Virus record (IMG/VR): IMGVR_UViG_3300033121_001188
Reading direction: 5' to 3' (one strand)
DNA length: 20,000 nt
Source of the DNA: an uncultured virus (IMG/VR IMGVR_UViG_3300033121_001188)
Taxonomy: Duplodnaviria > Heunggongvirae > Uroviricota > Caudoviricetes
Shown here one piece after another: positions 765-19,998 of the stretch; positions within the stretch are counted from its first letter, which is position 1; each line of letters starts with the position of its first letter. Under the pieces are notes generated by a model that worked only from the letters and a program-made list of their open reading frames with translations, was not told where the DNA came from and did not search any database. Position numbers and translations under genes: made by a program.

Positions 765-1463
765 TTATGCTACGTATGCTTTTTTCTTGATTACGTTGCC
801 GTAATACTTGAATTCTGGTTTTTGTGTTTTATTTGTGTCTTGAATATTAGCACTGAGTTTTTCTTCTGGGGCGATGATTTGCTTTCCGGCGAATAGTTCC
901 AATACTTTAGATGCCCTAACTCATAGATTTTCCTCTGCGTATTCTGCTATATATGACAGAAACTTTGTTTTTGTTGCTTCGTCTCTTTCTTTTTCAAAGT
1001 TATAGAGAGCCCTGATAAACAACTTGTGTTCTGGTAATACTTGCACAGATGATGATTTTAGTTCAAGGTTTTCTTGTAATAGCTCGACGTTCTTAGCTGT
1101 CAGTAGTTCTACGGTTTTCTTTAATCAGACATTTTCAACCTGTAGTTGTGCCTTTTCTGCGGCGTGTTGCTTTAGTGCGGGCAATAGGTCTACGTCTGCA
1201 TTGTCTAGTTGTTCTTCCAATTCTTTTTGGATCTCTTCTTCAATTTCTTGTTTCGCTTCTTGTACGTGTTCTTCTACCTTCTTTTCAATTTCTTGTTGGA
1301 TCTCTTCTTGCGATTCTGTTACGGCTTCTTCCGTAACTGTTGGTTCATCTGTTGTAGTGGTTTCTTCCTGTTGGTCTGGTTGTGTAACCTGTGTTTCTTC
1401 TGTTGTTGCAGTTTGTTCAGCGTTATCGATAACGCCAGCTGCCTCTAAAATGTTTTGTGACAT
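765..1463 (-). CDS. Putative capsid scaffolding protein, 232 aa (code 25)
   Basis: Extends ORF 1125..1463 through two TGA codons to TAA at 765-767. Acidic E/Q/T-rich N-terminus, coiled-coil middle and basic C-terminus (KYYGNVIKKKAYVA). Located between portal and capsid. Confidence 0.75.
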
Positions 1464-1513: not shown

Positions 1514-1542
1514 ATAATACAGCGCCTAACATATATTTGCAA
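1514..1542 (-). promoter_or_regulatory. Sigma70-type promoter for scaffold and capsid genes
   Basis: TTGCAA-N17-TATTAT on the minus strand, ~50 nt upstream of the scaffold ATG and just downstream of the portal terminator. Confidence 0.6.
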
Positions 1543-1612: not shown

Positions 1613-3619
1613 TTATATTGCTTGTCAAGATACAAGCGGTTGTGGTAGCTGTTGTTGCTGTGCCTGTTGTTGCGGTTGATACTGTATCCCAACTTTTTCA
1701 AATAATTGCGCTCTAATATTTTCGTCTCATACGGCCAATATATCCTCTAGCCTCATTGTAAGAGATATATTAACTGGTTTAACCTCTGGTCATTCCACTG
1801 GAGGTATATACTTATTCCTTATCTCTTCTGATTCTTTTAGATATTTATATCTTTCTTCTTGTTCCGCTTTTTTATCTGCTGGAGTTTGAATAAGCTCTGA
1901 TATTCCAGCAAGCTCATATATCTTATCTACAAGAGCTCTATAGTTCGTTGGGTTCTCTCATGTTACTGGATCTGGTGGCAATCCCTGCACGTATTGTATG
2001 ACGCTCACGAGCTGCTCTAATTTATCCGCGTTTCCTCCTATAAGGTCATCTGTGCGGAATGTTATGTTATATCAGTTAGATATATCTTTGACAGTAATTG
2101 ATTGTATTTCGTCATCAGACATCGAATCGTCTAGCTCTATGTCTTGACCATGAGCTTTTATAAGCAATACACACTTCTCAGCTGCATTTGAAAGGCTTGA
2201 AGATATGTTGTTAACCAAGGATACTATCTTGTTGCTGCTTGCCTCGTATTTCAGCGATGCTCACTTTGAACTCCTTTCGATACCTCATGTTCCGCCCTCA
2301 GTATATGGGTTTAATCACACCTTCGCATTAAACTTCGTTTCAACTCTGTCTAGCTCGCTAGATAGGGCCGCTATTTGACTTGGCTCTATCACTCTGACTG
2401 GCGATATTCATGCATTTGATTGTCATGGTGCAGCCTCAATGAATCATCGTGCCTTGTATGAAAATACTTGGCTATTATTCTTATTTCTTCATATCTCTGT
2501 TTCCTTAGAGAACATTGGATTACCAAGCATATTGATCGCTATCATCTTTGTCTCTTGAAGTCTATCGGCCTCTGCCTGATACGATGCTCACATGTCTCAT
2601 AGTCCTGATCAGTACACTACTCATGGTATTATCTTGTTCCTAAAGTGGACTATTGGCGATCACTCAAACGCATATTGCGATGGTCACCGATAGATCATCT
2701 CTTGGTTAATAATAACGCAATTATATGTAACATATTTTCCGTTGGTCTCTTTTATGTCAACAAATAAGTCAATAACTTCAAAACTATCATCACTAATAGA
2801 ATAGAACTCTTTTTCACTTTGTATTTGTCACCTTTGTATTGCAGATAGTAGTGAATCTGTAGTGCGCTGCGCGTCACATATTACCTTGTTCTGATATGAT
2901 TTAATGTCCTTGACTCTGTTATAATCGTATAGATAGTATCATTCCTTATCTTTAATGAGATCTCGCTTTGTTGGTTCAATTGTATACAGCTCTCTTATCT
3001 GCTTCTCTGTCATGAAGCATCTGTCTCCTGATATTCTATTTAGTCAATACGGATCTATGATGGCGTCAAATACAGATACATATTTTAATACTGGATAACT
3101 CATAGAAACATCATGAGATACGACTTCCGTAGATCAATCCTTTTTCTTTTTATAGTTATCTACAATAGACAAGTTCTTGTTTTTCCACATGATCTTTAGG
3201 AATCCATTTCCCGTTAACAGTGCTTCGTCAATAGCTTGGTTGATGGCAAGATTATTGTCCTCTCTTGAAAATATCCACTGGCAAGCCTTTTCGTACATCT
3301 TTGCCCCCTTGTTGTTTTTTTTACCAGCATACGAAGCGGCCCTTACCCTTTTTAGATTGAGCTTACTGAGCATTCAAGAAAATGTATTGTGCGCTCTTTC
3401 GATAAGATCTGTCTTGGAGTCAGGATTATACTGCCGCTCCAATCAAAGCTCCTTCAGCACAAGAAATCTTCTTGCGTTATATCACAACAAGTTTTCATAG
3501 TCCCTTATCCAGCATGGAACGTATTTGCTTTGTATGTACGAAGTACAAGAACTTGCCCGCGCAAGCATTTGGTCTCTTACTTCTTCTGGAGTGAGATTGT
3601 CTATTTTTTCGATATTCAT
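1613..3619 (-). CDS. Portal protein (P22-like), 668 aa (code 25)
   Basis: Single frame with no TAA/TAG. Motifs typical of P22-like portals: AIDEALLTGNGFLKIMW, YVSVFDAIIDP, IPGVVYGSGLGDMGASYQ, VGLNPYTEGG...SKGASL, GYNITF, DPVTG, and a Q/P-rich C-terminal tail. Confidence 0.88.
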
Positions 3620-3638
3620 TTATTGTATAATACAGCTA

Positions 3639-4070
3639 CTAAAAGAATGTTCAGCCATCCGTGTTTGATTTTACTCTAGGTAATTCCCTTTTATCTATAA
3701 CGACAGGGTCTTTCCCTCTGCTTATCCTAGTTATATCAGCCAAGGCCTTGAGTCACTTCAGCATTGCTCATTTTTCATCGAACATGTAATCTCTTTCCGT
3801 GTAGCTAACTAGTTTTTCCAGAAGATAGTCTACTACATTAGTAGAGTCTCAATCTGTTTTGTCACTTATTTTTTCAGACGCCTTTTGTCTTATTGCTGCT
3901 GTCAGCTCTTTTTCACTTCGGAATGCTGATTGATCTAATATTACTACTTCATTTTCTTGAGGGAGTATACTGGTCGACTGAGATTGCTGCTGTTGCTCAT
4001 TTGATAACTCCTCTGTAGTAGTTTGTTCTGTTGGTTTCGGCTCTTGTGAGCGCTTTTTCTTTACCGCCAT
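3639..4070 (-). CDS. Hypothetical protein, 143 aa; possible terminase small subunit
   Basis: Extends ORF 3849..4070 through TGA to TAG TAG. The C-terminal half (VVDYLLEKLVSYTERDYMFDEKGAMLKGLKALADI) resembles the TerS oligomerisation helices. It sits directly before the portal and overlaps the upstream gene by 233 nt. Confidence 0.6.
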
Positions 4071-7000
4071 TTAGTGTCCATGCTGTTGATAAAAGCTCGT
4101 AGTTACGAGTTACAAATTTTTTCATATCCAATGCATCTTTGAATATATCTATTGGGTCATATTTACCTCATATTTTCTTTCATGACACTCTTCCTGATGT
4201 TCATCATGACTTTGGAAGCGAATCGTCTTGCACTGTTTTTATTATGTATTCCTTTGCCCGATCGTTTATATAGTTAGATGATGCGAACAACTCTCACAAA
4301 GCCCTGTCTCCAAATTCTCTAAGCTCTGGGTATTTTCATGGGTTATTAGTGTATTCTAACAATGCATCGTAGTTATTTTTGAACATCTCTGTCATCACAA
4401 CCGCCTTTGCATCTTCAGATATTGGCATTCATCTCACTGTTGACAATTCATCTCCCATAAATGCAAGCTTGAATCTAGCGGTTAACGAGTCCCTATCTCT
4501 CTTCTCTTTTTCGTTTTTGGGTTTTACGCCATCGTTGATATATATTTTGCTTGCCATAAGAGATAGCTCGGACAGCTCTCATGTTTTTGGAAGCTCTCAC
4601 TTGGAAAGTCTTCAAAACATTTCTAGCCTTTTTTGTACATAGGCCTCTTCTCATGGCGTCGGCGTAATTCATACTACTCCTTCTTGGTATTTGTTTACAA
4701 CTGTCATATAAGCTGGATTGTTAGCGGCCTGCACCAATGGTAGAAGCTTTTCCGCAATAGCTAATTTTACATTTCTTCTGTATAGCTCGCTGGACGATTC
4801 TGATTTGTCAATTACGTCTATATACATTGTTCAGTCTGGGTTTAACCCTATTTCATGTTTCTTTTTCAACTGCTTGGCAGACAAACCAAATTCAGACTCT
4901 GATATAAAGTCTCATTTTTTAACTTCTTTTATTCAGTTGACAGTGGCTATATATCAGTTTGCTGGTACATATACAATGTCTCATTTTGTTGCGCTATCTA
5001 CTAATTGGTTGGCCATATATGTTAACAACGCATAAGATGTTCATGGTCCTCAGTTTTTCAATAGACCAATTGCCTCTCAGTGTGCCTTCATAAGCTTATC
5101 TGTTTGGCTTCCAGCAACCTCCAAGAATTTTGCATACACGTCTCATCATCACATTGATTTCGCAAGAGTGGCTTTATAGAGATCTGTTATCTCGTCGTTT
5201 ATTACTGATCACTCTCCCTCAACTGCGGCCGTATTAAACACAACCTTAAACACAGCATCCTCAAACTTTTTCTCGTCCTTCGTATTACGATAGAGCTGCT
5301 GTCGTTTTTGTATTGCCGATTGGAGTACGTTGTCTCATGCGTAGAATCATCTGATTACAGTATCTGAGTTCAGCTTATCGACCTTCTCGTCTACTTTTTG
5401 CGCAAATGGTAAAATAGACGCATAATCCTTTGTGTTGGATATAATAGTCTTGAATGCCTTTGTAATTGGGCTGTTTTTCCACAATAAGAATGGATAGTAT
5501 ATTCACTTAGTCTCTGCGTTTAGTAATACATTGTTGTAATCCGCCCTTTCTCTTGCATTTGTTCTCATGATCGCTTGTTGTGACTCTAGGTTTAACGCTT
5601 CGTTGAACTCCCAGTTTTTTTCTGAGAATAGCGCATCTCAAAGAGTTCCTTCATCATCAATTGCGATGTTTCTTTTAATTGTATTTACGTTTGCGAAAAA
5701 AGTCTGTGAAATAGCTTCTGTGAAGTAATCTCGTCCTTTGCCGTCTGTGGTCGCAGCGGCTCATACGAGTCCAGTAACTAATCTAGATACGGCTGGTAGC
5801 AATCTAATTTGTCTGCCAAACTCCCTAATAGACTGGTTAAGTCACTTATATAATGCGAACTTTGTTCAAGCGTCTAGGTATCAGTCTATTGTCTCAACCA
5901 CTACCCTTCAGTATGAATTCGCCATCACTCAAGCACTCAGTAAAGAAAAGTTCGCTAGATTGGATAATCTATCAATATAGTTCTTGTCTGGCCTTCATTG
6001 TATCCTATTTATTCTCTGCTCTCGTAGCAATCAGTTCAAAAGCATTGCCATTGCAGCTTGAAACTCTAGCGCTCAAAGTCCATCTGTAAATTGTGATAAC
6101 GCTTCCTTTACTCAGCCGTTCCTAAATCAGTTCACGGCTCATACGAACGGCGTTGCAAAGTTTCTGGCATGGGCTTTCATGACGGCCAATCACCATCATC
6201 CCATATACATTCGTAGCCTATTAGCGGTAGCGGCGATAGACTCATTTTGAGCCTCTTGTGCAAACTTAGCAGCGCTGAATCATCTTAGTGTTGGCATAAA
6301 AACATTTTCTGCCCTATCTGCTATCTTCTGTAATAGATCTGCTTTTCAAAGTGCGTCTGCCTGTCTATATTGTGTCAAAAATGCCTTTACTCATCAGAAC
6401 TTCTCGGCTGCGGCTTGGAAGGCAAGCTTCTTTACTTCTGGATCGAACACAGCTTCTGCAATATCTCACGTGTTAGATACGTTTGGCTGAAACTTGCTAT
6501 TCAACAGATTATTTTTATACGATCTTATAACGCTGCCTATTTGCCTCCAAGCCTGTACTCATTTTTGATATGTGTCCTTATTTAGGCCAGTTGTTGTAAA
6601 CTCGTCTAACTCTAAGAACGCCGTATTGTTACGTATGTATCCTTCGTTGATCATTAACTCTAGCATCTCAGAAACATCTTGATCGGAGTCAAACAACAGT
6701 CTGGAAAATGTTGCATACTGTGTTTTTGATTGAATGGCTTGTGGTATAAACTGATAATGGCTTAATATGGGACCAAATATTTTCGCAGCCTTACTAATTC
6801 GCTTAACCCCCCTATAAACCCCCCTTTGCACTGCTCACCACGCTCATGCAAGTTCCTCTAGGCTCTTTCATCATAAGTGCTCTAGTATGCCAGTTAGTTC
6901 GTTTACCTTTACGTTCCAAAATTCGTTTGTTTGTATATATCTTGCAAGGTCTGGAGATAGTTGCTCGTAGCTTGCGAATATGTCATTTCACGTAAAGAAC

Positions 7001-7527
7001 TTCTCCAGCGCCATTGGTTCTTTGCTAGAAGAAAGCACGTCCTTTACTTTTTCTGATGCCTGTATAAACATCTTTTGTACTGCTGGATCGAACTCTGATC
7101 TTTTCGAGTTAACTTGTAAGTACTTTCTTGTATTTCTAAGAGAGCTTTCAATGTCAACTATATACTTGGGATTCGATCTTGCCCATCTGAGATATTCAAG
7201 AGACGTATTGTCTCATATTGACAATCACGACTTAATCCTATCAATATCAAACTCTACTGCGTCTTGTGGTCTTTCAACATAGTCAAATTGTCATACGGAT
7301 TCTTTTATAAATGTTCAAACCTTTCATGCCTTACTTTGCTTCTTTGGTTTTTCGTAGAACAATTGTTTAATTGACTGCTCTATGTCTATTTTGCCAATAA
7401 ACGGCTGCACAATGCTATTGTATTTGTTTTGCGCCGCTTTTGGTAATTTTTTCAAGAATCATCCAAACAAGGCTTGCGTTTCCTCTGTGATGTCTTTATC
7501 TAGTTGCTTGATGTCGCAGTATGTCAT
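3838..7527 (-). CDS. Large putative virion ejection (internal) protein C, 1229 aa (code 25)
   Basis: ATG at 7527 (MTYCDIKQLD...), one frame without TAA/TAG to 3838, containing ORF 6559..6831. Helical composition, Gly/hydrophobic segments and a basic Gly/Lys-rich C-terminal tail. Function is inferred from size, composition and context. Confidence 0.78.
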
Positions 7528-7528
7528 G

Positions 7529-10500
7529 CTAATTACATGGATTATTGATAGATTGTATCTGTTCGTCTATTTCTTGCACTATTTCGTTAGACTGCTTATA
7601 CGTTGGTGTTTTCTTTATCTTCTGTTGATAAAACATACTGTCTGGCGTCTTATCAATTAGTTCTATAGCAGATGGCCTTGACACAATATCCTCTATAGCA
7701 GATAACTGTTGTTGATTTCATCAAAGCGCAGCTATTACCGTTTCTCATATATTGGCATCCGCAAATTCTCTTCTAAGATTATCTTGTATCAGTTTTATTG
7801 CATCTGCAGACGGAGATCATGACAATAAGTCAGTAACCCTTATTCCGTCTATCGTTGCTTCTTGTATTACGGACATATCATTAACATAAGCGTTGAATGA
7901 GGTCTGGATGTCGGCATCTGCCGATATACTATATGTTCATAATCTTTGACCTTTTTTGATAGATGATACTACATCTTGGTATCATTTGATTATATTTTCT
8001 ATTGTTTGTGGGTCTGCTCATTGAGCGAGCTCTATCAGTTGTTTTGGAAGAGCGATCTCTCATTCGTATCCATTGATAGTACTGAACACTGGCATATTTC
8101 TTCTAATCAGATCTACGTCACCTATTTTGAATCATATATAGTCTGACAAGTATTTTGTAGATAGATTCTCGGCTATGTTTTTATCAAGTACTACCAATAA
8201 ACTTCAAAGAATGTATTGCTTAGTCTCGAACGGTAAAGTCTTCAGTTCGTTTGGTATATCTCTAATCGGAGCCGCATCTCACAGCTTGTTTGCATAATAT
8301 CTTATTGCTGTGTCAATATCGAATTTGTAAATCTTTCATCTAAATGGTATAGTTGTATATCCATTTTCAAGTAGATTTTTTATAATATCTGATTTTGGGT
8401 TGTTGGCTCTTTGTTCTATGGCTGTTGATATGCCCTCAAACCATGACTTTATATTTTGCTTTGCATCTGTAGATAATTGTTGCTCGTTTCAGAAACTAGG
8501 TACTTTCAATAAGCTTTCTTTCGCTAAGACAGTCTGGACAGTCGGCTGAGTAGATGAGGCTATCTTAATAGTGCTAAACAGATCTCAGTATTCATTCACA
8601 ATGCTTTGTAATTCCGATCTTAGTTTAGACCTATATTCTGAATTTACCTCTTGTGCGCCGACTCACGATAATCACTTAGATGCTCTGTAATAATCATCTA
8701 TCAATGACTCTATCTTATTACCAGCTTCCTCTAGCCCATATTGTATTTGTTTGTACCTTGTTGGCATGTTGCCGTCCGCAAGGGCTGCATCAAATTGCTC
8801 AAACAATGAGTCAGACGCTCAGTCTAAGTCTATGTACCTATTACTCAATCACAATGTCCTCAACGCTCATTCATTTATTACTCATGAGACAGGAGAAGAC
8901 TTCCAAACGCCTGATGCTTTGCTGTCGCGAATTGCCTCATATGCCGTTCATACGACTTTTTGTAGTAATAGAGCAGACCTGTAATCATATTGCAAGTTCT
9001 TTCTTTCCATGCTTGCCACAACTGTTGGATTTGCAGCGGCAAACGCATTAACGGTTGCAAGCATCTGATACTTTCAACTCTCTCATATTGTATTCGAAAC
9101 GTCCAACAGTATCTCTTGGTATTGCGCTTTTGTGGCCTTTCATTCCTTTGCATCTGCAACAAAATCAGATAGCTTGTTCAGAAACTTTGGTATATATCAT
9201 TCGTTTGCAACAACGAAATCGACTATTTCAGATAGCCCGTATGATCAATATGGTATTGATAGTGATTTACTTATAGAATCAGCTAGGTACTCCATTGCCC
9301 TATAATCTGTTTTATTGAACGCCTGTACTGCTGATACGTCCACTCATAACAACAGCTGTGCTAACGGAGCTGGATCTGATTCATATATGTAGGAATAGAT
9401 TTTACCAGCCATGTCCTTTTCTGTTTTTGTCGTCATGCTCTCAACCAATCATGCTATTGATTGTTGTGGTATTCAGCCGAAGTGGAATATATCAGAAGCA
9501 AGTTTATCTGCCAAGGACAATAGCAAAGCTGACGCATCTCATGAGCGCAAAATTCACTTTATTCCAGATAGCGCCTCTTCTTTATCTACGGTTCATTGTC
9601 TCAGCTGGCTTGTGTATTCTACAACGTCTGCTGTTTTTTGGATGTCATAAAAGTTGGCTGGAGTGACGCTCAATCATACGTTCATGTCGCTCTGCACCTT
9701 TGGGTATCTTATGGATACAACCTCATTTATTAACTTTTGCGTCTCTTGCTCTGGTAAACCCGTTTGCAAGACTCTGTCGAATACTTGATCGAGACCAGCA
9801 AATAGTTTGCTAAGTCTTGAGGCGCTCGGAGCATTCACGGTGAGCCTATCGGCACTAATGCCAAACCTATATCCTATTATAGGCATTACCAGTTTCACAT
9901 CTAATTGCTTTGCTTTCCTTTCTACTTCCCTAGGTAGTTTTTGATAACTCGAAAGAACCAATGTTGACCCCTTATGCTGTTCTATTATAGACATAAGATC
10001 AGATCAGCTTGCTTTAACAGCGCTAAATCATGAGTCCACTGAATTTTGTTGGTATAGCGCGTCGTATAATTTTCCATCAGCAGTGTCTATTGCTATGTCG
10101 TTTTCAACTAATATAATTGGTCTTTTCTTTTTTCACGATACCTTTAGCTTTCAAGCGGTTATGTTTGAGATCAAGGATTTTCTTACAGATGCCTCTAGGC
10201 CGTTTTCACGTATTTGATTACTTATTTCGCTTATGTACTTAGGTTTATTCGCCTGTATAAACTTATATATGTCAGAATCAATTGATCACGATATATCTAT
10301 ATAGTCTTTATATATTTGCTTTTTTATTGCGTCGTATATTGCTAATACGTCTTTATCGTCTGACAGCGCGTCAATCTGGCTCTTTGCTCATAATATCAGG
10401 TCAATACGCTCGTTGCTGAGACCAAACACTCATGCTATATCGCGCACTGGCACAATTGTGCTTGATCACTTGATTTGATCTGCTATAATATTGGATTGCA

Positions 10501-11494
10501 ACTCATTATTAGTGTATTGTATATTGTTTCTATACTTTATAGATTCTATGTTGTCTATAACAAATCATTCGCTAACGGTGGCCGCCTGCCTTTCTGATAA
10601 CGCAAATCTTAGTGCCTCAATGTGATCGTTCACGCTAAGTCATTTCCTTTTCGGTAACTTTCTGGCTAAAAATGCGTAATAATCGTCTTCACTATTGATG
10701 CTCAGCTTATCTTCAAGGATCTCATCAACAAACCTTGCTAGTCTGGCAACTACTGAAAAATTAACAGTACCCATTCAAAGCATGCTATATGCCACTATTT
10801 TTGATATTGAGCTTGGAAAATCATCTGCAAATTTTTTTGACGACACTATTGATTTCACAAAATCGTCGCTTACTCATACAGAGAAAATTCTATTTAATAT
10901 TTTATCAACATACGCCTCTTTCTCTGCCATAGACTTTCCATCTAACGACTTAGCTATGTGGTCTTGAACGTCATTTATCAGACTAAACTCCTTATCGGAA
11001 TTGTACTTTGTTATAAGATCGTCTATATCTTGTACGCTTCAAAAGATCCTATTTATTCATAGGTTAAGTTTTTCTGCTTCGTAAAACATCATAGCCGCTA
11101 ACCTGTTGAGCGATTCTCATACTGCTTTTTCGTCTCACAGTATTGCTGCGCCTCATTTTATCTTCTCGAAATTTTCAAGTGCATAAGCAAATCAATTCGC
11201 TATTGATCTGTTGAATAAACTATTCTTTCAAGTCTTCATAGACTCTATTGCTTTCGCAACGAATACTGGGCTATCGACAACGAAATTTATGCTTCAATAA
11301 AATATATTATTGGCTGCGTCTCATACCATAAGGGCAGATTGCCTTGACGCATCTACAAAAGACATATTATCTTTGTATATGTATGATTGCTCCGCAAGAA
11401 AATCCAAAAACTGTTGGTCTGTCGACTTACTAGCTCCATCAATAACACTTGTTATTATATCGTTTAATAGTGATTTGCCTTCGTAGCAGGACAT
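7529..11494 (-). CDS. Large putative virion ejection (internal) protein B, 1321 aa (code 25)
   Basis: ATG at 11494 (MSCYEGKSLL...), open to TAG at 7529-7531 (...QSINNPCN*), containing ORF 9674..9994. No catalytic motif recognised. Confidence 0.78.
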
Positions 11495-11501
11495 ATTGTA
11501 A

Positions 11502-14500
11502 TTAGCATCATAAATTCTTCAGCGGGCTTAGTACCTCATACATAGTATTGATTAGATCAGATTGTTCTATCTTTTGAGCTACGTCTTGCGTAATCTCTCA
11601 GTTAGATACCGCCTTTTGTATTCTTTCGTTTTGTAGGTTTTGTAGTTCTGTTGTAATATTGGTATTCTTTTTATTCTTGAGGTATGTTGCTGCGTCTTGC
11701 ATCTTTGCGCCGTCTGATATACTAGATTTAAGCGCATATACCTCTCACGGTCTCTCCTCGAATAAAGAGCGTAGGAATGGCGTATCATACCTATCAGACT
11801 CTCTTACTCAGTTTGCGGCAAACCACTCTGTCGTAGGAGCTTCTAGTGCATCGAATTCCTCTTTATTCAGGATTGTTCATTTGTCGTACAATCTTGTTCA
11901 TCATTCAAATTTGCTTTGTATGTCAGTTGTTTTAATCGTTATTGCTTGCGCTCCTCATCACTCTTGTATATTTAATGTCACGTTATATTTGAATTGGTCA
12001 GAAAAGTCTCATACCTTCATTGGATTGAAATCGGTTATCTTGTTTCACAGATCATCATATTTTGGTTGCTGAATAGAAACCTTGCTTGAAGCGGCACTTG
12101 AAAATCAATATGTTATTTCCTGACCATTATTTCTAGCAATAAAGTATCATAATACATCATCTGCCGTTTTTGAGTCGTCCTCTACTAGCTTTGCAAGCAA
12201 ATCTGTTCTACTCGAAACTACTCAGATATTATTTAATCACTCCTCTAGCAGCCTTATGTTCAATCATCAGTTAACGGTACTTTGCTTTACAACCGTGGAT
12301 ATATCTGTTGATATGTCGTCAACAATTGAATATTCGAACAGCTTCGTCTTAATCACTTTGTTTAACTCTTGTTCTGTAATAGATCATGCTTTGACGGCGT
12401 TTTGCATAATTAACAATGACTCCTGTCATGCCTGTCTTATTTGGTCTATGTTTTCAAGGTTGAAATTTCCTACCCCAGCATCAAATCATAATTGTTCTAT
12501 CCTCTTTGCAAGTATAGATGACGTAAGGTCGTCATAATTAGCCACCCTATCCACAAGGAACTTTCATGTTTGCGCATTTTTGAGTTTTCCTATTGCTTGT
12601 CGTCAGTCTATTGGTAATCAGAAGAATATGTCTGCCACGGCGTCTGCTTTAGAATAATCTATGCCAGCTATGCTTCATATCGTTCAGTTTATTACTGCAT
12701 TAAGCGGTAATGTTTCTCACAACAGATTTCAAACCGCAGCAACTCTGTCAAGAGTCTGTATTCTAGATATCGCCGTAGTTGCTGTACTGGCGCCACGCGT
12801 TGCAGCCGTTCCAATCCTTCATAGTGCCCCACCAACTAACATACTTGCCACAACAGACACAACGTCGTCTGCATTTATGTAAAGTCAGTTTTTAGCCTTC
12901 TCTATGATTCCTCTGCTCTCATCTGCCTGTATCAGTCTAGTTCCTACGGATCATAATCAAAGTCTATCCATATCGTAGAACCTTTGCGGTCCGACCGCCC
13001 TAGCTCATCATATATATGCCTCTCTTAGTAGATTGAACTTGTTTTCGGTCAGAGTGATTAGGTCTGACGCAACTCATATAGGTGTTGCGATAGGCGAAAG
13101 CCATCCAAAATTATATCATCCAAGTTTCAGTTTGTTCTTTATTTTGAACGACATTAGCATGTCTCATATGTTTGTCTCTGGTGTCTCTCACATATAACGT
13201 ACCTTCAGCACATCGGAGAAGTCTCATTTTCCAGACTCGAGTCTTTGCCTAGCTTCAGCAGCTGGTGCTATTTCAGAGCTCCAATAATTCTGTGGTATAT
13301 TTTTTCTCATATACTCTATTGGCGTAACCCCGTATTTTTCAATGAATCTATCTGTCGCTATCTTTTCTGATTCTTTCGTTGACTTTCAATTTATTACCAA
13401 GTTTTCAAATTGGTTTCATATTAACTCGCTGAAGGCTGGCATTATAATATCCAAAGACGTCCTCAACTTATCTGCCTCCGCAAGTACTTCTTTTCTGGTC
13501 TCTGCGTCTGCTCATGATTCATCAAGAAGCTTCACCGTCGCCTCTATTGTTCCATAGAAATCTCTTACTTTTGCGGTATGTTCATTCTGTAACGCCCTAA
13601 AAGAAACTAACGTTTCGGTTTTCATTCACGCGAGCTTTTTAGCTCACTCATCGCTCAGCTTAATCGCACCAAATGTTTCCGCCTTCTTTGAAATATCTTC
13701 TGACGGCTCTAGATTAGAGAATATTGGTTTTGCTTTTTCTAAATATTTTTGTGTTTTTTCGGCAGATTTATATACCGCTGTTACGTATGACTTGAGTCAT
13801 CAGTACGTTATGTTTATTCAGTCTGGACGTAATGATTTTAATTGGTCATTTATATATGTGTCCCTCATCTTATCGATTGAGTCTAGTCATGCTATATATT
13901 CATCTGCGCTTAGCTTTCAATTGAAAAAACTGTCTCTGAGCGACACAAATGAATCTGTATATGCTTTAGACGCATTATATAGCACCTCTTGTGCTATTGT
14001 CTTCGTAGCCCTAGATGTTGGGTCGCTAAACATCGGCATAGCGCCAGAACTGCTTGTTCAATATTGTCAGCTGTTAGCTTTGAACGCATTGAATTGATTT
14101 AGCTCATTACGCTCCGCTATTCATGTTTGATATGCCAGCCCAGCAACCGCAGCTGATCAAGAAACCGTCTCTTTGAGTCATTGGAAAAAATTACGAGTTC
14201 CGTCTATATATTCTCTTGGATTAGAGATGAGCTCTGCGGCCTGTAGGATAGCGTATCACGTAGGGTTGGTGAATGAGTCAAAAACAACAGATGCTATGCT
14301 GGATGCTTTCTCAGCAATACCGTCATATATTGACTTTACTACGCCAGAATCTGGCAGTGCGTCTGGAAGATTTGCTGCTACAACGGCATCTTGTGCAACT
14401 TGTTGAGCAGCTATAGGTGCAGCCGCTGCTATTGCGGCTTCGGTTGGCAATTGTTGTTGCGCTATATTTACTTTTTGCGCTGCCTCAAAAGCAGAGTCTA

Positions 14501-15002
14501 CTGCTGATTGTAGTTGTCATGCGGCGTTAGTGTCTGGAGCCGGTAATTCAACACCAGCCTGTTGCGCTATATTGTTTGCAAGTTTGTCTGCTTCTTGGGC
14601 GTTGACGGACTGCAATATATTCTGTGCGGCGGTTGTAGCTGCCTCTGTCGATATTTTTGACAATTCTTCTTGTGCGGCTTGTCTCTGTCATTCGTTAATT
14701 ATATTTTGTGCAGCCTGTAGCGCAGCATCAGTTGTCTCGTATGTCGGTGTTCATTGTGCTGCCTGTGTAGCAATATCCACAGCAACCTGTGGAACATACG
14801 TCTGAGCGGCTGCTGTTTCGGCAGCGGTGACTGCCTGTTGTTCAGGAGTGTATTGTAAAGCCTGCTTGGCTACATCAACAGCAACATTTGCAGGTTGTTG
14901 TGCGGCTTGTTGTGCAACAGAAATAGCGGCATTAGCCGCTGCTTTATCGTTTCATCAGAAAAGATTTTTTACATAATCGTAAGCTCTGCTTAGAAAGTCC
15001 AT
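11502..15002 (-). CDS. Large putative virion ejection (internal) protein A, 1166 aa (code 25)
   Basis: ATG at 15002 (MDFLSRAYDYVKNLFGGN...), open to TAA at 11502-11504 (...LKNLGC*), containing ORF 14256..14450. Ala/Gln-rich N-terminus and a Gly/Ala hydrophobic segment (VVSVVASMLVGGALGRIGTAA). Confidence 0.8.
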
Positions 15003-15036
15003 TTGAAGTGCATGATAATCAATTTAATAATACAGT

Positions 15037-17301
15037 CTAGTATCGGTTAGCATTCCATGGAAGCTTTGTTGTTTTTTCTTTCATTTTATTCTCATGCATC
15101 TTCATCAAGAACTCTACTGTATTCATTTCTGCTAAAGTTGGTTTCCTTTGACTCGTGGTCTCTCTTGAAAGAATGTCTCATCTGGTACCAAACAATACAT
15201 ACATAATATATACTCAGAACATCATAGCAAATGCCTTATCGTCCTTTCACACTCATACAAGCCTCTTGTATCCGTTTTTCTGTTCCTTCAATTGCAGGTT
15301 TTCGATTTCATACAAGAGCGTTGTCTGTTCCTGTCATGATGTTTTTGTTGCCAGCTCCCTATTTATTCTTACATAAAATCACTCGAATGCCTCTTGGTTA
15401 TATTTGAGTACTTTTTTAGGAGCTATGTAGAATACTCAGCTGTCTCTATATTCTTTCTGCGTATCGGTTGGCAGAGAGTACATTGGGAAGTCTATCGTAA
15501 GGCGCTGTGATTCTGCGTTGTCTATCCAAGATTTGTCTGAGGTAATATCAGCTCATACGTATACCTCGTTGTCGTAATCTATAAGTCTATCGTGCCATAT
15601 TTCCTTGAGTTGCTTTATTTGGCTTATTTGTCACTTTCTGTCGGTGTTTGCGGTAAAGGAGTCTATCACATATATTCTGTCTCACAAGATTCATAAGATA
15701 CATACTCACGGATCGTCAGATTCTGTCGCCCTGTCGAGATATATCAATATATCATCGAACTTGTCTGGTATATCGTCAAAAGCACCAGCCACATCAAGCG
15801 TTTTTTGCTTGTCCATAAGGGTCGAGAAAAATTCTGCTAACACATATGCATCTCATCTTTGGCGCCTTGCATCTTGTATATTCTTTTTAATATTGTCTAA
15901 TCAAAACCTTTTAATTTGGCTTTCAGAATCATATATGGTGTATCTCTTGCAAACAAACGGCCTTGCGTTGAAATACTCTTCTCTCAGCTGTTCAAGCTCT
16001 CTAAGACTGCTTTCTACCTGCTCTTTTGTTTTTTTGTCTAGTCAATATTTCCTCCATAGCCTTACGATTAGATCTTCGTTCTGTTCATAATCAAATTGTC
16101 TCAACTCTGCAAAAGTGGCCTGTTGATAGAACCAGTTCTTTTGTGTTGAGCTGTCTACGGTTGATATACAGAATAACAGTGTACCATCTGCAATAAGGTT
16201 ACCCTTTAGGGCGTCATAAGCTGCACGATTGCAAATGGCAGCCTCGTCTATAATTGCCGCGAATGGTCTCATACCCCTAATAGACTTAGAATCCGCCGAC
16301 ACAAACACAAGCTCTCACACGATTATCTCCTTTCACATAACTACAGTTTTGAAGTAGAGAGATTTCTTGCTCTCGACAAACTCCAAGTAATACTGTCAAT
16401 AGGATTGTATACTATTTGAGATATACGGAAATATAGAGTTCACAATTGATTCTTCTGTTGGTCCTACATATATCACCTTTCTGTGGGACAATTTATTTGA
16501 GTGGTCTTGTCACAATGTAAAAAGCTCTGCGAGCAGAGTACATATCAATGACTTTCATCATCATCTCGTCATCATTAGATAATTCTCTCTTCCATAGTCC
16601 AGCAAGAACTCTCTTTGCCATCTTTCTAGTTTTTGCTCATTTGGATCATCATGGAATCAACCAAAAAGCGACTGCACGAATCTAGGCGCATACGATCAGT
16701 AAAGAGGCGTAGTAAATGTTCAGCCGTTGTACTTGTAGGCAATGGACGTGTAATCCTCTCATATACGTGTTTTTTCTATGTGTTTGGTCTTTGATCAGCC
16801 CTCTCTCTTATAATATGATATTTCATCGAACCTATACAATCAAGACATAAAAAGCTTCATAGCCAAGAGTCAGTCGTCTATAATTCTTTCTGTTCTTTGT
16901 TTTTTCTTGAATATAGGTATTCCACTTCTGCCATATATGTCGAACTCCTTCAAGAATGATATAAGCCAGTTCTTGATCTCATCAGAAACCTTTCAGTCTT
17001 TTACCTGTAGGTATAGTCGTTTGCGAAACTCTGATGTAATGTCCTCGTATCAGTCTGTCTCAGTAATTGCTGGCACAGATATTTCTATGGGATCTAATCA
17101 ATTGTCATAGTTGAATGTTTCCCAATAGTCAAAATCGCCATACCAGTCTATAGCGAGTTGCGGATCGATACAGAATTTGGCGTTTTCTTCGTTTCAGTCA
17201 TAAAAGGCAGACCCGTCAATTGCTTTTTTATATATAAAGCCAAAATTGTATCTGTTATATTTAGCCTGTGGCGAATAACTATATCTTCAATCATTAACCA
17301 T
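15037..17301 (-). CDS. terL: Terminase large subunit, 754 aa (code 25)
   Basis: Q motif (LERWQ), Walker A TRGGGKS (three TGA codons), VIYVGPT, Walker B SIRGMRPFAAIIDEAA, coupling motif CIST followed by NWFY, and nuclease motifs IYLDRATESDD and GVGKDDKAFA. Confidence 0.93.
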
Positions 17302-18533: not shown

Positions 18534-18604
18534 AGCATCTGACTGGAATCGAACCAGCGTACACGGCTTTGCAGGCCGCCATCTAACCACTTGATTACAG
18601 ATGC
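18534..18604 (-). tRNA. tRNA-Cys(GCA)
   Basis: GCATCTG/CAGATGC acceptor stem, anticodon loop CT-GCA-AA, T loop GGTTCGATTCC; CCA not encoded. Confidence 0.92.
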
Positions 18605-18734
18605 ATATTTGCAACCGTTGATTGACTGATGACTTTCCCAGCATGAATATATCATATAAATGATACCACATATTTATAAGGCACACAGTGTGGTAGACTG
18701 CAATACCACGCACTATACAGTACGTTTTTATATA

Positions 18735-18808
18735 TGGCGGTCCGTACGGGTAACGCTCCCGTGTTACCACAGTGACAATGTGGCGTCCTACTATTGAACG
18801 AACGAACC
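18735..18808 (-). tRNA. tRNA-Asp(GTC), atypical T loop
   Basis: CCACA-TT-GTC-AC-TGTGG anticodon arm, T loop AGCGTTA, encoded CCA. Confidence 0.8.
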
Positions 18809-18811
18809 AAT

Positions 18812-18884
18812 TGGATAGGGTTGGAATTGAACCAACTTATCTGGCTTTTCAGACCAGCGCCTATACCTCTTCGGCCTCCTATCC
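18812..18884 (-). tRNA. tRNA-Phe(GAA)
   Basis: GGATAGG/CCTATCC acceptor; CTGGT-CT-GAA-AA-GCCAG. Confidence 0.88.
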
Positions 18885-18891
18885 ATACGTT

Positions 18892-18981
18892 TGCGCCAAA
18901 AGGGATTCGAACCCCCACAACAATCTTTCAGTTGACGGGATTTACAGTCCCGCTCCGCCTACCCATATCGGACTTTGACGC
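18892..18981 (-). tRNA. tRNA-Tyr(GTA)
   Basis: CGGGA-CT-GTA-AA-TCCCG, long variable arm, GGTTCGAATCC. Confidence 0.9.
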
Positions 18982-18987
18982 ATAAAG

Positions 18988-19062
18988 TGGAGCCTCCTAA
19001 TGGAATCGAACCATTATCTCATCTTTACAAGAGACACGTAATAACCACTATACTAAGAAGGC
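18988..19062 (-). tRNA. tRNA-Thr(TGT)
   Basis: GCCTTCT/AGGAGGC acceptor, loop CT-TGT-AA, encoded CCA. Confidence 0.85.
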
Positions 19063-19064
19063 AT

Positions 19065-19136
19065 TTGCGGGAGACGGAATCGAACCGTCCTGTTCGGCTT
19101 ATGAGACCGACCTCTGACCCAGTCGAGTTTCCCGCA
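19065..19136 (-). tRNA. tRNA-Met(CAT), initiator-like
   Basis: TGCGGGA...TCCCGCAA acceptor resembling tRNA-fMet; TCGGT-CT-CAT-AA-GCCGA. Confidence 0.82.
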
Positions 19137-19141
19137 TAATA

Positions 19142-19214
19142 TGAGGACAGTAGGGGTCGAACCTACAACCACGTGCTCCCAAAGCACGCATTCTACCATT
19201 TGAAATATATCCTC
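19142..19214 (-). tRNA. tRNA-Pro(TGG)
   Basis: CGTGC-TT-TGG-GA-GCACG; GAGGATA/TGTCCTC acceptor. Confidence 0.88.
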
Positions 19215-19218
19215 TAAA

Positions 19219-19287
19219 CAGGCTGTCCTAGAATCGAACTAGGCCTAGCGGATTTGGAGTCCGCCGTAAAGACCAACAATACAGCCT
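19219..19287 (-). tRNA. tRNA-Trp(CCA), reduced D arm
   Basis: AGGCTGT/ACAGCCT acceptor with G73; GCGGA-CT-CCA-AA-TCCGC; only 69 nt long with a weak D stem. Confidence 0.78.
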
Positions 19288-19298
19288 ATGCTATATTA

Positions 19299-19371
19299 TG
19301 TCCATGGAAGGAGTTGAACCTTCGACTTGCAGATTAAGAGTCTGCCACTCTGCCAGCTGAGTTACATGGAC
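19299..19371 (-). tRNA. tRNA-Lys(CTT)
   Basis: GTCCATG/CATGGAC acceptor; GCAGA-CT-CTT-AA-TCTGC. Confidence 0.92.
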
Positions 19372-19377
19372 TTATAG

Positions 19378-19451
19378 TGGGCCCGTTAGGGATTGAACCT
19401 AAGTATCTCTGTCTTATGAGGACAGCGCCTTTACCGCTTGGCTACAGACCC
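19378..19451 (-). tRNA. tRNA with CAT anticodon (Ile2/lysidine type or elongator Met)
   Basis: GGGTCTG/CGGGCCC acceptor; CTGTC-CT-CAT-AA-GACAG. Isotype cannot be fixed by eye. Confidence 0.85.
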
Positions 19452-19452
19452 A

Positions 19453-19527
19453 TGGGGTGTACGAGGAGTATCGATCTCCCGTCTCCTGCGCCACAAGCAG
19501 GCGTTCTACCATTGAACTACATACAAC
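19453..19527 (-). tRNA. tRNA-His(GTG)
   Basis: CCTGC-TT-GTG-GC-GCAGG; G-1 opposite C73; encoded CCA; 1:72 mismatch and T loop ATCGATA. Confidence 0.83.
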
Positions 19528-19533
19528 ACAAAG

Positions 19534-19608
19534 TGGCGTATACGGTTGGACTCGAACCAACAACCAACAAATTAACAGTTTGTCGCTCTACCTTTGAGCT
19601 ACGTACAC
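19534..19608 (-). tRNA. tRNA-Asn(GTT)
   Basis: ACAAA-CT-GTT-AA-TTTGT; G73; encoded CCA. Confidence 0.92.
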
Positions 19609-19614
19609 ATAGTA

Positions 19615-19686
19615 TAACTCTGGCTGGAATCGAACCAACATCAGTCGGGTAGAAGCCGAGTGCCTTATCCGTTGGGCTACAGAGTC
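19615..19686 (-). tRNA. tRNA-Arg(TCT)
   Basis: GACTCTG/CAGAGTT acceptor; TCGG-CT-TCT-AC-CCGA; D loop CGGATA with A20. Confidence 0.88.
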
Positions 19687-19687
19687 A

Positions 19688-19764
19688 TGGTACTTATGGA
19701 AGGACTTGAACCTTCAGATCGCCAATGTATCAGATTGGTGCTTTAACCATTAAGCTACATAAGT
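19688..19764 (-). tRNA. tRNA-Ile(GAT)
   Basis: ACTTATG/CATAAGT acceptor; CCAAT-CT-GAT-AC-ATTGG; encoded CCA. Confidence 0.9.
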
Positions 19765-19771
19765 TTATATT

Positions 19772-19845
19772 TGTCTCATGTTGGACTCGAACCAACCGCC
19801 TTCAGGTTAAAAGCCTGTTGCTCTAACCAGATGAGCTAATGAGAC
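19772..19845 (-). tRNA. tRNA-Lys(TTT)
   Basis: GTCTCAT/ATGAGAC acceptor; CAGG-CT-TTT-AA-CCTG. Confidence 0.9.
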
Positions 19846-19848
19846 ATA

Positions 19849-19921
19849 TGCACAAGGTCAGATTCGAACTGACAACCAACGCCGTGTAGGGACGCTGCTC
19901 TCGCCATTGAGCTACTCGTGC
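19849..19921 (-). tRNA. tRNA-Val(TAC), C33 variant
   Basis: GCACGAG/CTTGTGC acceptor; GCGTC-CC-TAC-AC-GGCGT. Confidence 0.83.
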
Positions 19922-19922
19922 G

Positions 19923-19998
19923 TGGGAAGGTCAAGGGGATTTTAACCCTCGTCTCCTGCTTGAGAAACAGGTATGTTATTCCATTACACCATGACCTC
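19923..19998 (-). tRNA. tRNA with CTC anticodon (Glu by anticodon), atypical T loop and discriminator
   Basis: GAGGTCA/TGACCTT acceptor, C73, encoded CCA; CCTGT-TT-CTC-AA-GCAGG; T loop TTAAAAT. Confidence 0.7.

Follow-up and report, generated by a model that had tools for sequence, protein, structure and literature searches.

Cysteines at the facing ends of three giant proteins in a phage with TGA recoded to glycine: a candidate head-to-tail disulfide-linked ejection cargo

Three giant genes and their cysteines

The record IMGVR_UViG_3300033121_001188 of IMG/VR, an uncultured virus of the Caudoviricetes, was analyzed over a stretch of 20,000 nucleotides, which is referred to below as the window. 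Its minus strand carries, under translation table 25, three consecutive giant genes designated A, B and C. Their products comprise 3716 residues with four cysteines, and each of these cysteines is located at an end that faces the neighboring protein in gene order. Based on this layout and on comparison with other phages, the three products are proposed to be injected proteins joined end to end by disulfide bonds. The three genes and the four cysteine codons are located as follows.

11502..15002, minus strand: gene A, 1166 residues, 59 TGA codons read as glycine; starts MDFLSR and ends ...KNLGC before the stop
7529..11494, minus strand: gene B, 1321 residues, 54 TGA codons; starts MSC and ends ...NNPCN before the stop
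3838..7527, minus strand: gene C, 1229 residues, 64 TGA codons; starts MTYC and ends NRLRLY
11505..11507, minus strand: Cys1166 of A (TGC), the last codon ahead of the TAA stop
11486..11488, minus strand: Cys3 of B (TGC), from the table 25 translation
7535..7537, minus strand: Cys1320 of B (TGT), from the table 25 translation
7516..7518, minus strand: Cys4 of C (TGC), from the table 25 translation

A first-pass annotation of this DNA had described four cysteines in 3716 residues, all of them near inner ends, and the computed translation reproduces this exactly, including protein lengths and codon coordinates (residue 1166 in A, 3 and 1320 in B, 4 in C). The same annotation had named further internal cysteines as one of the results that would speak against its proposal; the computed translation contains none. 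The outer ends, namely the N-terminus of A and the C-terminus of C, are also devoid of cysteine. The starts of B and C are secure, the next in-frame start-type codon being a TTG at residue 30 in B and a TTG at residue 20 in C.

The cysteine depletion of A, B and C is selective and not compositional, because cysteine codons (TGY) occur in frame 1, 2 and 1 times, respectively, vs 12.1, 16.7 and 17.0 predicted from position-specific base frequencies, and are plentiful (26-61) in the other two reading frames of these genes. Nor does it extend to the whole genome, in agreement with the first-pass annotation: the neighboring products contain 20 cysteines in 1888 residues, distributed among the large terminase TerL (6/754), the portal (7/668), a capsid-side open reading frame (ORF; 7/234) and a scaffold-like ORF (0/232). 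Histidine (0.1-0.4%) and tryptophan (0.2-0.7%) are likewise very low in A, B and C. The chance of finding zero internal cysteines at the rate of the neighbors is P = 8e-18 and that of four randomly placed cysteines falling one per inner end is P = 3e-11, while for ends exempt from selection, with neutral cysteine at 1-5%, P ranges from 1e-6 to 7e-4, all these values being post hoc.

The last calculation bears on a simple alternative, in which selection against cysteine misses the last few, probably disordered, residues and the four cysteines are neutral, meaningless leftovers. This view draws support from the fact that the pattern was selected post hoc among a very large number of scanned windows, that the evidence of conservation is limited to a near-identical variant, and that, according to the study of phage DEV, the few cysteines of gp72 homologs are found close to truncated ends or where the sequence is not conserved (PMC11445570). 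Conversely, neutral ends with 1-5% cysteine would yield a cysteine at each inner end and none at the outer ends with a chance of 1e-6 to 5e-4, the layout recurs in three unrelated phages considered below, including one whose bond has been solved, and the complete absence of terminal cysteine from gp20-24 of phage SU10 and from gp15 and gp16 of T7 argues that ends are not generally permissive for this residue. Altogether, tolerated leftovers are considered quite improbable as an explanation.

A second alternative concerns the nucleic acid and not the protein, as the TGY codons could be a by-product of a signal in the DNA or RNA where the genes meet, whether an RNA structure, a frameshift site or an element for translational coupling. 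The junctions are indeed tight: 7 nt (11495..11501, minus strand) separate the TAA stop of A from the ATG of B, and a single nucleotide stands between the TAG stop of B and the ATG of C. Both downstream genes are shifted to the +1 frame of their upstream neighbor, and both have TAATTA a few bases before the ATG, which speaks for a signal of this kind. However, of the seven TAATTA copies on the coding strand five lie away from the junctions, shuffled sequences fold more stably than the RNAs of the two junctions (z-scores of +2.25 and +0.71 for the latter), and the frames of the downstream genes stay open for no more than 11 and 13 codons ahead of their starts, where a slippery site is absent. 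Moreover, Cellulophaga phage phi14:2 and Anabaena phage A-4L have the same cysteine layout with different junction DNA. Since the junction DNA differs between phages, the rule of facing cysteines acts on the protein, and a nucleic acid signal appears very improbable.

Gene block, genetic code and relatives

With translation table 11 only two ORFs of at least 150 residues are detected in the window. In contrast, table 25 discloses an unbroken block of minus-strand genes in which A, B and C are flanked by the following features.

15037..17301, minus strand: large terminase (TerL), 754 residues, directly upstream of A
1613..3619, minus strand: portal protein, 668 residues, matching SU10_portal (PF23899) and phrog_332/1216; 218 nt downstream of C
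765..1463, minus strand: scaffold-like ORF under table 25, 232 residues
2..703, minus strand: partial capsid-side ORF under table 25, 234 residues

In this phage TGA is read as glycine, because the glycines of the terminase Walker A motif (R-G-G-G-K-S, encoded as AGA TGA TGA TGA AAG TCA in the region 16558-16575) are written with three TGA codons in succession and because GGN and TGA are exchanged in a close variant: when the latter is translated with code 4, at least 18 of its 152 differences are glycine/tryptophan swaps, i.e., GGN/TGA exchanges. TGA accounts for 4-5% of all codons in A, B and C vs 2-2.7% for GGN. Phages using code 25 have been described for Absconditabacteria and Gracilibacteria (PMC10746230), and judging by the genetic code the host probably belongs to one of these two groups. 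At least 15 tRNA genes are arrayed over 18534-19998 (minus strand) up to the end of the window and include tRNA-Cys(GCA), two tRNA-Met and two tRNA-Lys; a tRNA with the UCA anticodon, which would read TGA, was not found within the window.

Three copies of the 9-mer CTGTATTAT are present on the coding strand (15027-15035, 3627-3635 and 1514-1522, minus strand), all of them intergenic and before gene starts: one preceding the start of A by 33 nt, one upstream of the portal gene and one upstream of the scaffold-like gene. About 0.08 copies are expected per strand, and the wider context reads TAG-n2-3-CTGTATTAT-nn-AAT. This element is a candidate for an extended -10 type promoter of the phage. As CTGTATTAT occurs only outside the block, with no copy between or within A, B and C, the three genes look like one transcription unit. 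The gap between C and the portal gene (3620-3837) stands out as 218 non-coding nucleotides amid tight packing; it contains one CTGTATTAT, and no terminator-like hairpin was found on its coding strand.

The three proteins differ in several properties. Their net charge is -31 for A, -28 for B and +25 for C, and the last 40 residues of C (3841..3960, minus strand), with a net charge of +11, are the most positive 40-residue window of the set, so that this basic tail is a possible DNA-binding trailing end. Protein A contains a sole strongly hydrophobic segment of 19-25 residues, at 709-733 (12804..12878, minus strand), a candidate membrane-inserting stretch. Its first ~230 residues (14300-15002) are rich in alanine and glutamine, of low complexity and predicted to be helical; no tandem DNA repeats were detected in this part. 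The start of A falls within the most GC-rich section of the block, with a GC content of 46% in 14001-15000 vs ~38% elsewhere. Two stretches of A, 12782-12901 and 13997-14157, have the same length in the variant contig and cannot be aligned to it, with flanks ~92% identical, and are local hypervariable patches. The possibility that A, B and C are paralogs was ruled out (BLASTP E > 4 among them). An AlphaFold2 model of A made with no alignment had a mean predicted local distance difference test score (pLDDT) of 37.6 and was set aside.

When B and C were searched against 5.8 billion proteins, and residues 1-1200 of B against 1.84 billion representatives (HMMER), only the near-identical variant was retrieved. 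This variant, a contig of 32,929 bases, shares 93.3% (A), 96.4% (B) and 97.8% (C) identity, keeps all four cysteines and has gained none across the 152 substitutions. In four read runs the 32,929-base contig corresponds to the variant, and the remaining pieces are short and 90-99% alike; this comparison counted 1038 differences. Residue 4 of B (11483-11485), adjoining Cys3, is tyrosine in the window and histidine in the variant (P0001; Y4H), and Tyr38 of B is also replaced by histidine there; histidine otherwise accounts for 0.3% of B. A match of B 66-215 to PepO (E 5e-4) was too weak to be credited by itself.

Two portal relatives with 35-36% identity, both recoding TGA (P0004 and P0005), were found. 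GenBank phages contained no tblastn match to B or to the portal, and no candidate was confirmed when viral contigs were scanned with B, with the portal or with an alignment of three portal sequences. Degenerate portal patterns hit 0 and 12 loci in viral contigs, 8 in metagenome contigs and 3 in genome contigs, and none of these 23 loci encodes a relative (tblastn, code 25). The lineage of this phage has almost no relatives in public data.

Probable injected cargo and a proposed end-to-end chain

Suppression of cysteine in injected phage proteins has been documented. The account given for 191 Schitoviridae reports 0.00075% cysteine in homologs of DEV gp71 vs 0.865% in the proteomes, and none in N4 gp50 (PMC11445570); passage across the host envelope was proposed as the cause of this suppression (PMC11445570). 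Our own counts gave no cysteine in the N4 vRNAP (3492 residues counted) nor in T7 gp15 and gp16, and a single one in T7 gp14 at residue 2 (MCW...), that is, 1 in 2261 residues of core proteins. In SU10, gp20-24 lack cysteine over 2956 residues and are equally low in histidine and tryptophan, while other virion proteins of this phage contain cysteine. A, B and C may be read as packaged and ejected cargo of a podovirus-like phage because their purge of cysteine, histidine and tryptophan resembles that of known ejected proteins and their genes are located among head genes.

A precedent for the facing cysteines is found in cyanopodophage A4, in which a Cys1715-Cys5 disulfide, seen by cryo-electron microscopy, anchors the C-terminal helix of gp27 to gp26 (PMC12002296). 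The paper (PNAS 2025) raises a possible chain reaction on ejection (PMC12002296), and in the authors' interpretation the bond stabilizes a layered ring and not a threaded chain (PMC12002296). The first-pass annotation was aware of no established description of a mechanism of this type, a position that the published A4 bond overturns. In Anabaena phage A-4L (KF356198), gp27 (1717 residues) has its sole cysteine at 1715 (...DNPCQF before the stop) and gp26 (1114 residues) at residue 5 (MSKHC); the genes are adjacent and co-directional, that of gp27 stopping 5 nt before gp26. Three consecutive giants of phage phi14:2 (KC821624) have cysteine at residue 1797 of 1797 (gp078), at 3 and 2179 of 2180 (gp077) and at 3 (gp076). 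In Bacteroides phage crAss001 the positions are 2339 of 2341 (gp47), 5, 1334 and 2404 of 2412 (gp50) and 5 (gp49). Facing cysteines are thus seen in A-4L, in phi14:2 and in crAss001, where Cys1334 of gp50 is an additional one, but not in T7, SU10 and N4. Considering the present phage, A-4L, phi14:2 and crAss001 together, facing cysteines are present at 7 of 7 junctions and cysteine at 0 of 8 outer ends, in a set of comparators that was chosen by hand and is not a random sample, and with a chain order for crAss001 that is assumed, gp47 being on the other strand; both circumstances belong with the reservations listed below.

Based on this evidence, the favored reading, with a probability of about 0.6, is that the three proteins are cargo that is injected and linked as A-SS-B-SS-C. 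Cys1166 of A most probably pairs with Cys3 of B, and Cys1320 of B with Cys4 of C, as intermolecular disulfides in the mature particle. The original suggestion of such a chain is upheld in so far as a head-to-tail link in gene order has a precedent in A4 and the layout recurs in A-4L, phi14:2 and crAss001. A complex prediction for the C-terminal 63 residues of B together with the N-terminal 67 of C, fed with the database translations of the variant in which one TGA was read as tryptophan, scored 0.00 and speaks neither for nor against the tether.

The following mechanism can be hypothesized. Cargo that leaves the capsid through the narrow channel of portal and tail would be purged of cysteine, and the bonds would form once the particle meets an oxidizing milieu. 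Each disulfide would tie a protein, by its C-terminal end, to the N-terminus of its successor. Since the links would run end to end, the product would be an unbranched linear thread of 3716 residues, with a 1:1:1 ratio of its components, that could pass through the channel. A, B and C would exit in this order, the basic tail of C being adjacent to the DNA, and reduction in the host cytoplasm would open the links.

The terminal cysteines could, on the other hand, be functional and paired otherwise, forming no chain: homotypically, in rings or dimers of A-A, B-B and C-C, with the portal or another virion protein, or in a metal site shared between two ends. A single cysteine at each end would suit like-to-like pairing just as well, and the seven cysteines of the portal offer possible partners. 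T7 gp14 exemplifies a sole cysteine at residue 2 with no facing C-terminal cysteine in gp13 (T7, V01146), and the histidine that adjoins Cys3 of B in the variant could suit a metal site. Yet Y4H is absent from the window sequence, so that there is no fixed Cys-His site, and the cysteine-free outer ends of A and C fit a chain better than homotypic pairing. The A4 bond is heterotypic, connecting the C-terminal end of the upstream product with the N-terminus of the downstream one (PMC12002296), and one C-terminal cysteine for each N-terminal cysteine is what the junctions of the four phages display. Other pairings are therefore regarded as rather unlikely, and the end-to-end chain of A, B and C is retained as the preferred explanation.

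A number of points weigh against this chain. The presence of A, B and C in the virion is deduced only from the purge and the gene location, and the latter is itself unusual, as A, B and C lie between terminase and portal while the ejection genes of T7, A-4L and SU10 follow the tail genes. No similarity of A, B and C to proteins of A-4L, crAss001, phi14:2, T7, SU10 or N4 was found, and no convincing family match was obtained in Pfam, PHROG, NCBIfam or PDB sequences. Conservation comes only from a variant that is 93-98% identical, a distance at which four unchanged residues are expected anyway. The disulfides could form only after release from the reducing cytoplasm, and the pattern of tether cysteines is not universal, since it is missing from T7, SU10 and N4.

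Comparison with known systems

One close counterpart is the pair gp27-gp26 of A4 and A-4L, which resembles the present case in having adjacent co-directional genes and giant, mostly helical proteins; ...DNPCQF is similar to the ...NNPCN end of B and MSKHC to MSC and MTYC. As in that pair, the upstream partner is otherwise free of cysteine and carries one at its C-terminal end (residue 1166 of 1166 in A, 1320 of 1321 in B), the sole N-terminal cysteine of the downstream partner is among the first five residues (Cys3 of B, Cys4 of C), and the genes adjoin in the same direction with the upstream C-terminus facing the downstream N-terminus across spacers of 7 nt and 1 nt. In A4, however, a single link joins two proteins, the genes come after those of the tail and the standard code is used, whereas two candidate links, three proteins, a terminase-portal location and code 25 are found here. 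No homology of A, B and C to A-4L gp27 or gp26 was detected (phmmer --max, full-sequence E 0.49-0.78 with negative bit scores).

In the block of giant cargo and virion RNA polymerase genes of crAss-like phages, both crAss001 and phi14:2 have three giants with cysteines at the facing ends, and in phi14:2 the arrangement (last residue; residue 3 plus last but one; residue 3) is that of A, B and C, including the MSC start. These proteins are 1.2 to 2 times larger than A, B and C and show no similarity to them (bit scores ≤ 2.8). Moreover, gp077, the middle protein of phi14:2, has the two-barrel polymerase motif (DFDID) at 1361, whereas B lacks DxDxD; the sole DxDxD of the three proteins is at residue 280 of C, with ~0.8 expected by chance. 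In the crAss001 paper, the passages on disulfides deal with gp57 and the tail.

The Schitoviridae (N4 gp50-52; DEV gp71-73) share the suppression of cysteine over an injected protein of ~3500 residues, a size (3398-3500 residues) that can be compared with the 3716 of A, B and C, as well as a hydrophobic stretch in the first third. They differ in using a single fused, cysteine-free polypeptide in place of three separate proteins. No match of A, B or C to the RNA polymerase families of Pfam was found, and the best BLASTP alignment to the N4 vRNAP had an E of 0.032 over 42 residues.

T7 (gp14-gp15-gp16) and SU10 (gp20-gp24) are alike in encoding their ejected proteins in consecutive genes and in the nearly or wholly cysteine-free composition of these proteins with low histidine and tryptophan, and the portal of the present phage matches the SU10 portal family. 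They are distinguished by the lack of facing terminal cysteines (Cys2 of gp14 alone in T7, none in SU10) and by another genome location. An identity of A, B and C as a T7-type core was not sustained by homology, by a lytic transglycosylase domain within the largest of the three or by a position of the genes after those of the tail tube.

Facing terminal cysteines may also represent a design rule that is independent of lineage, by which separate cysteine-purged cargo genes of podophages are joined into one unbranched thread cleavable in the cytoplasm; this generalization is tentative and is held at somewhat less than even odds. A, B and C have no detectable kinship to the cargo of A4, crAss or N4 phages, and under a general rule this would imply convergent evolution or a very ancient trait. 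Should the two links of the present phage be real, separately translated proteins would become one linear cargo of 3716 residues with fixed order and ratio, which would account for the sequential exit of several giant proteins from the capsid via one narrow channel. The signature itself, giants free of cysteine except at facing ends, could reveal injected proteins and their order where no family is recognizable, and it is seen here outside the crAss-like phages and outside the cyanophage with the solved bond, in a lineage with an alternative code.

A literature search over ~8.4 million papers and preprints, with subscription journals mostly outside the scope, retrieved no other paper on a three-protein chain or on a rule of facing cysteines beyond A4. 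What is already known comprises the purge of cysteine from injected proteins and, in A4, one end-to-end disulfide between two ejection proteins; what the present phage contributes is a candidate with two links and three proteins, made of orphan sequences, written in code 25 and located at a different genome position.

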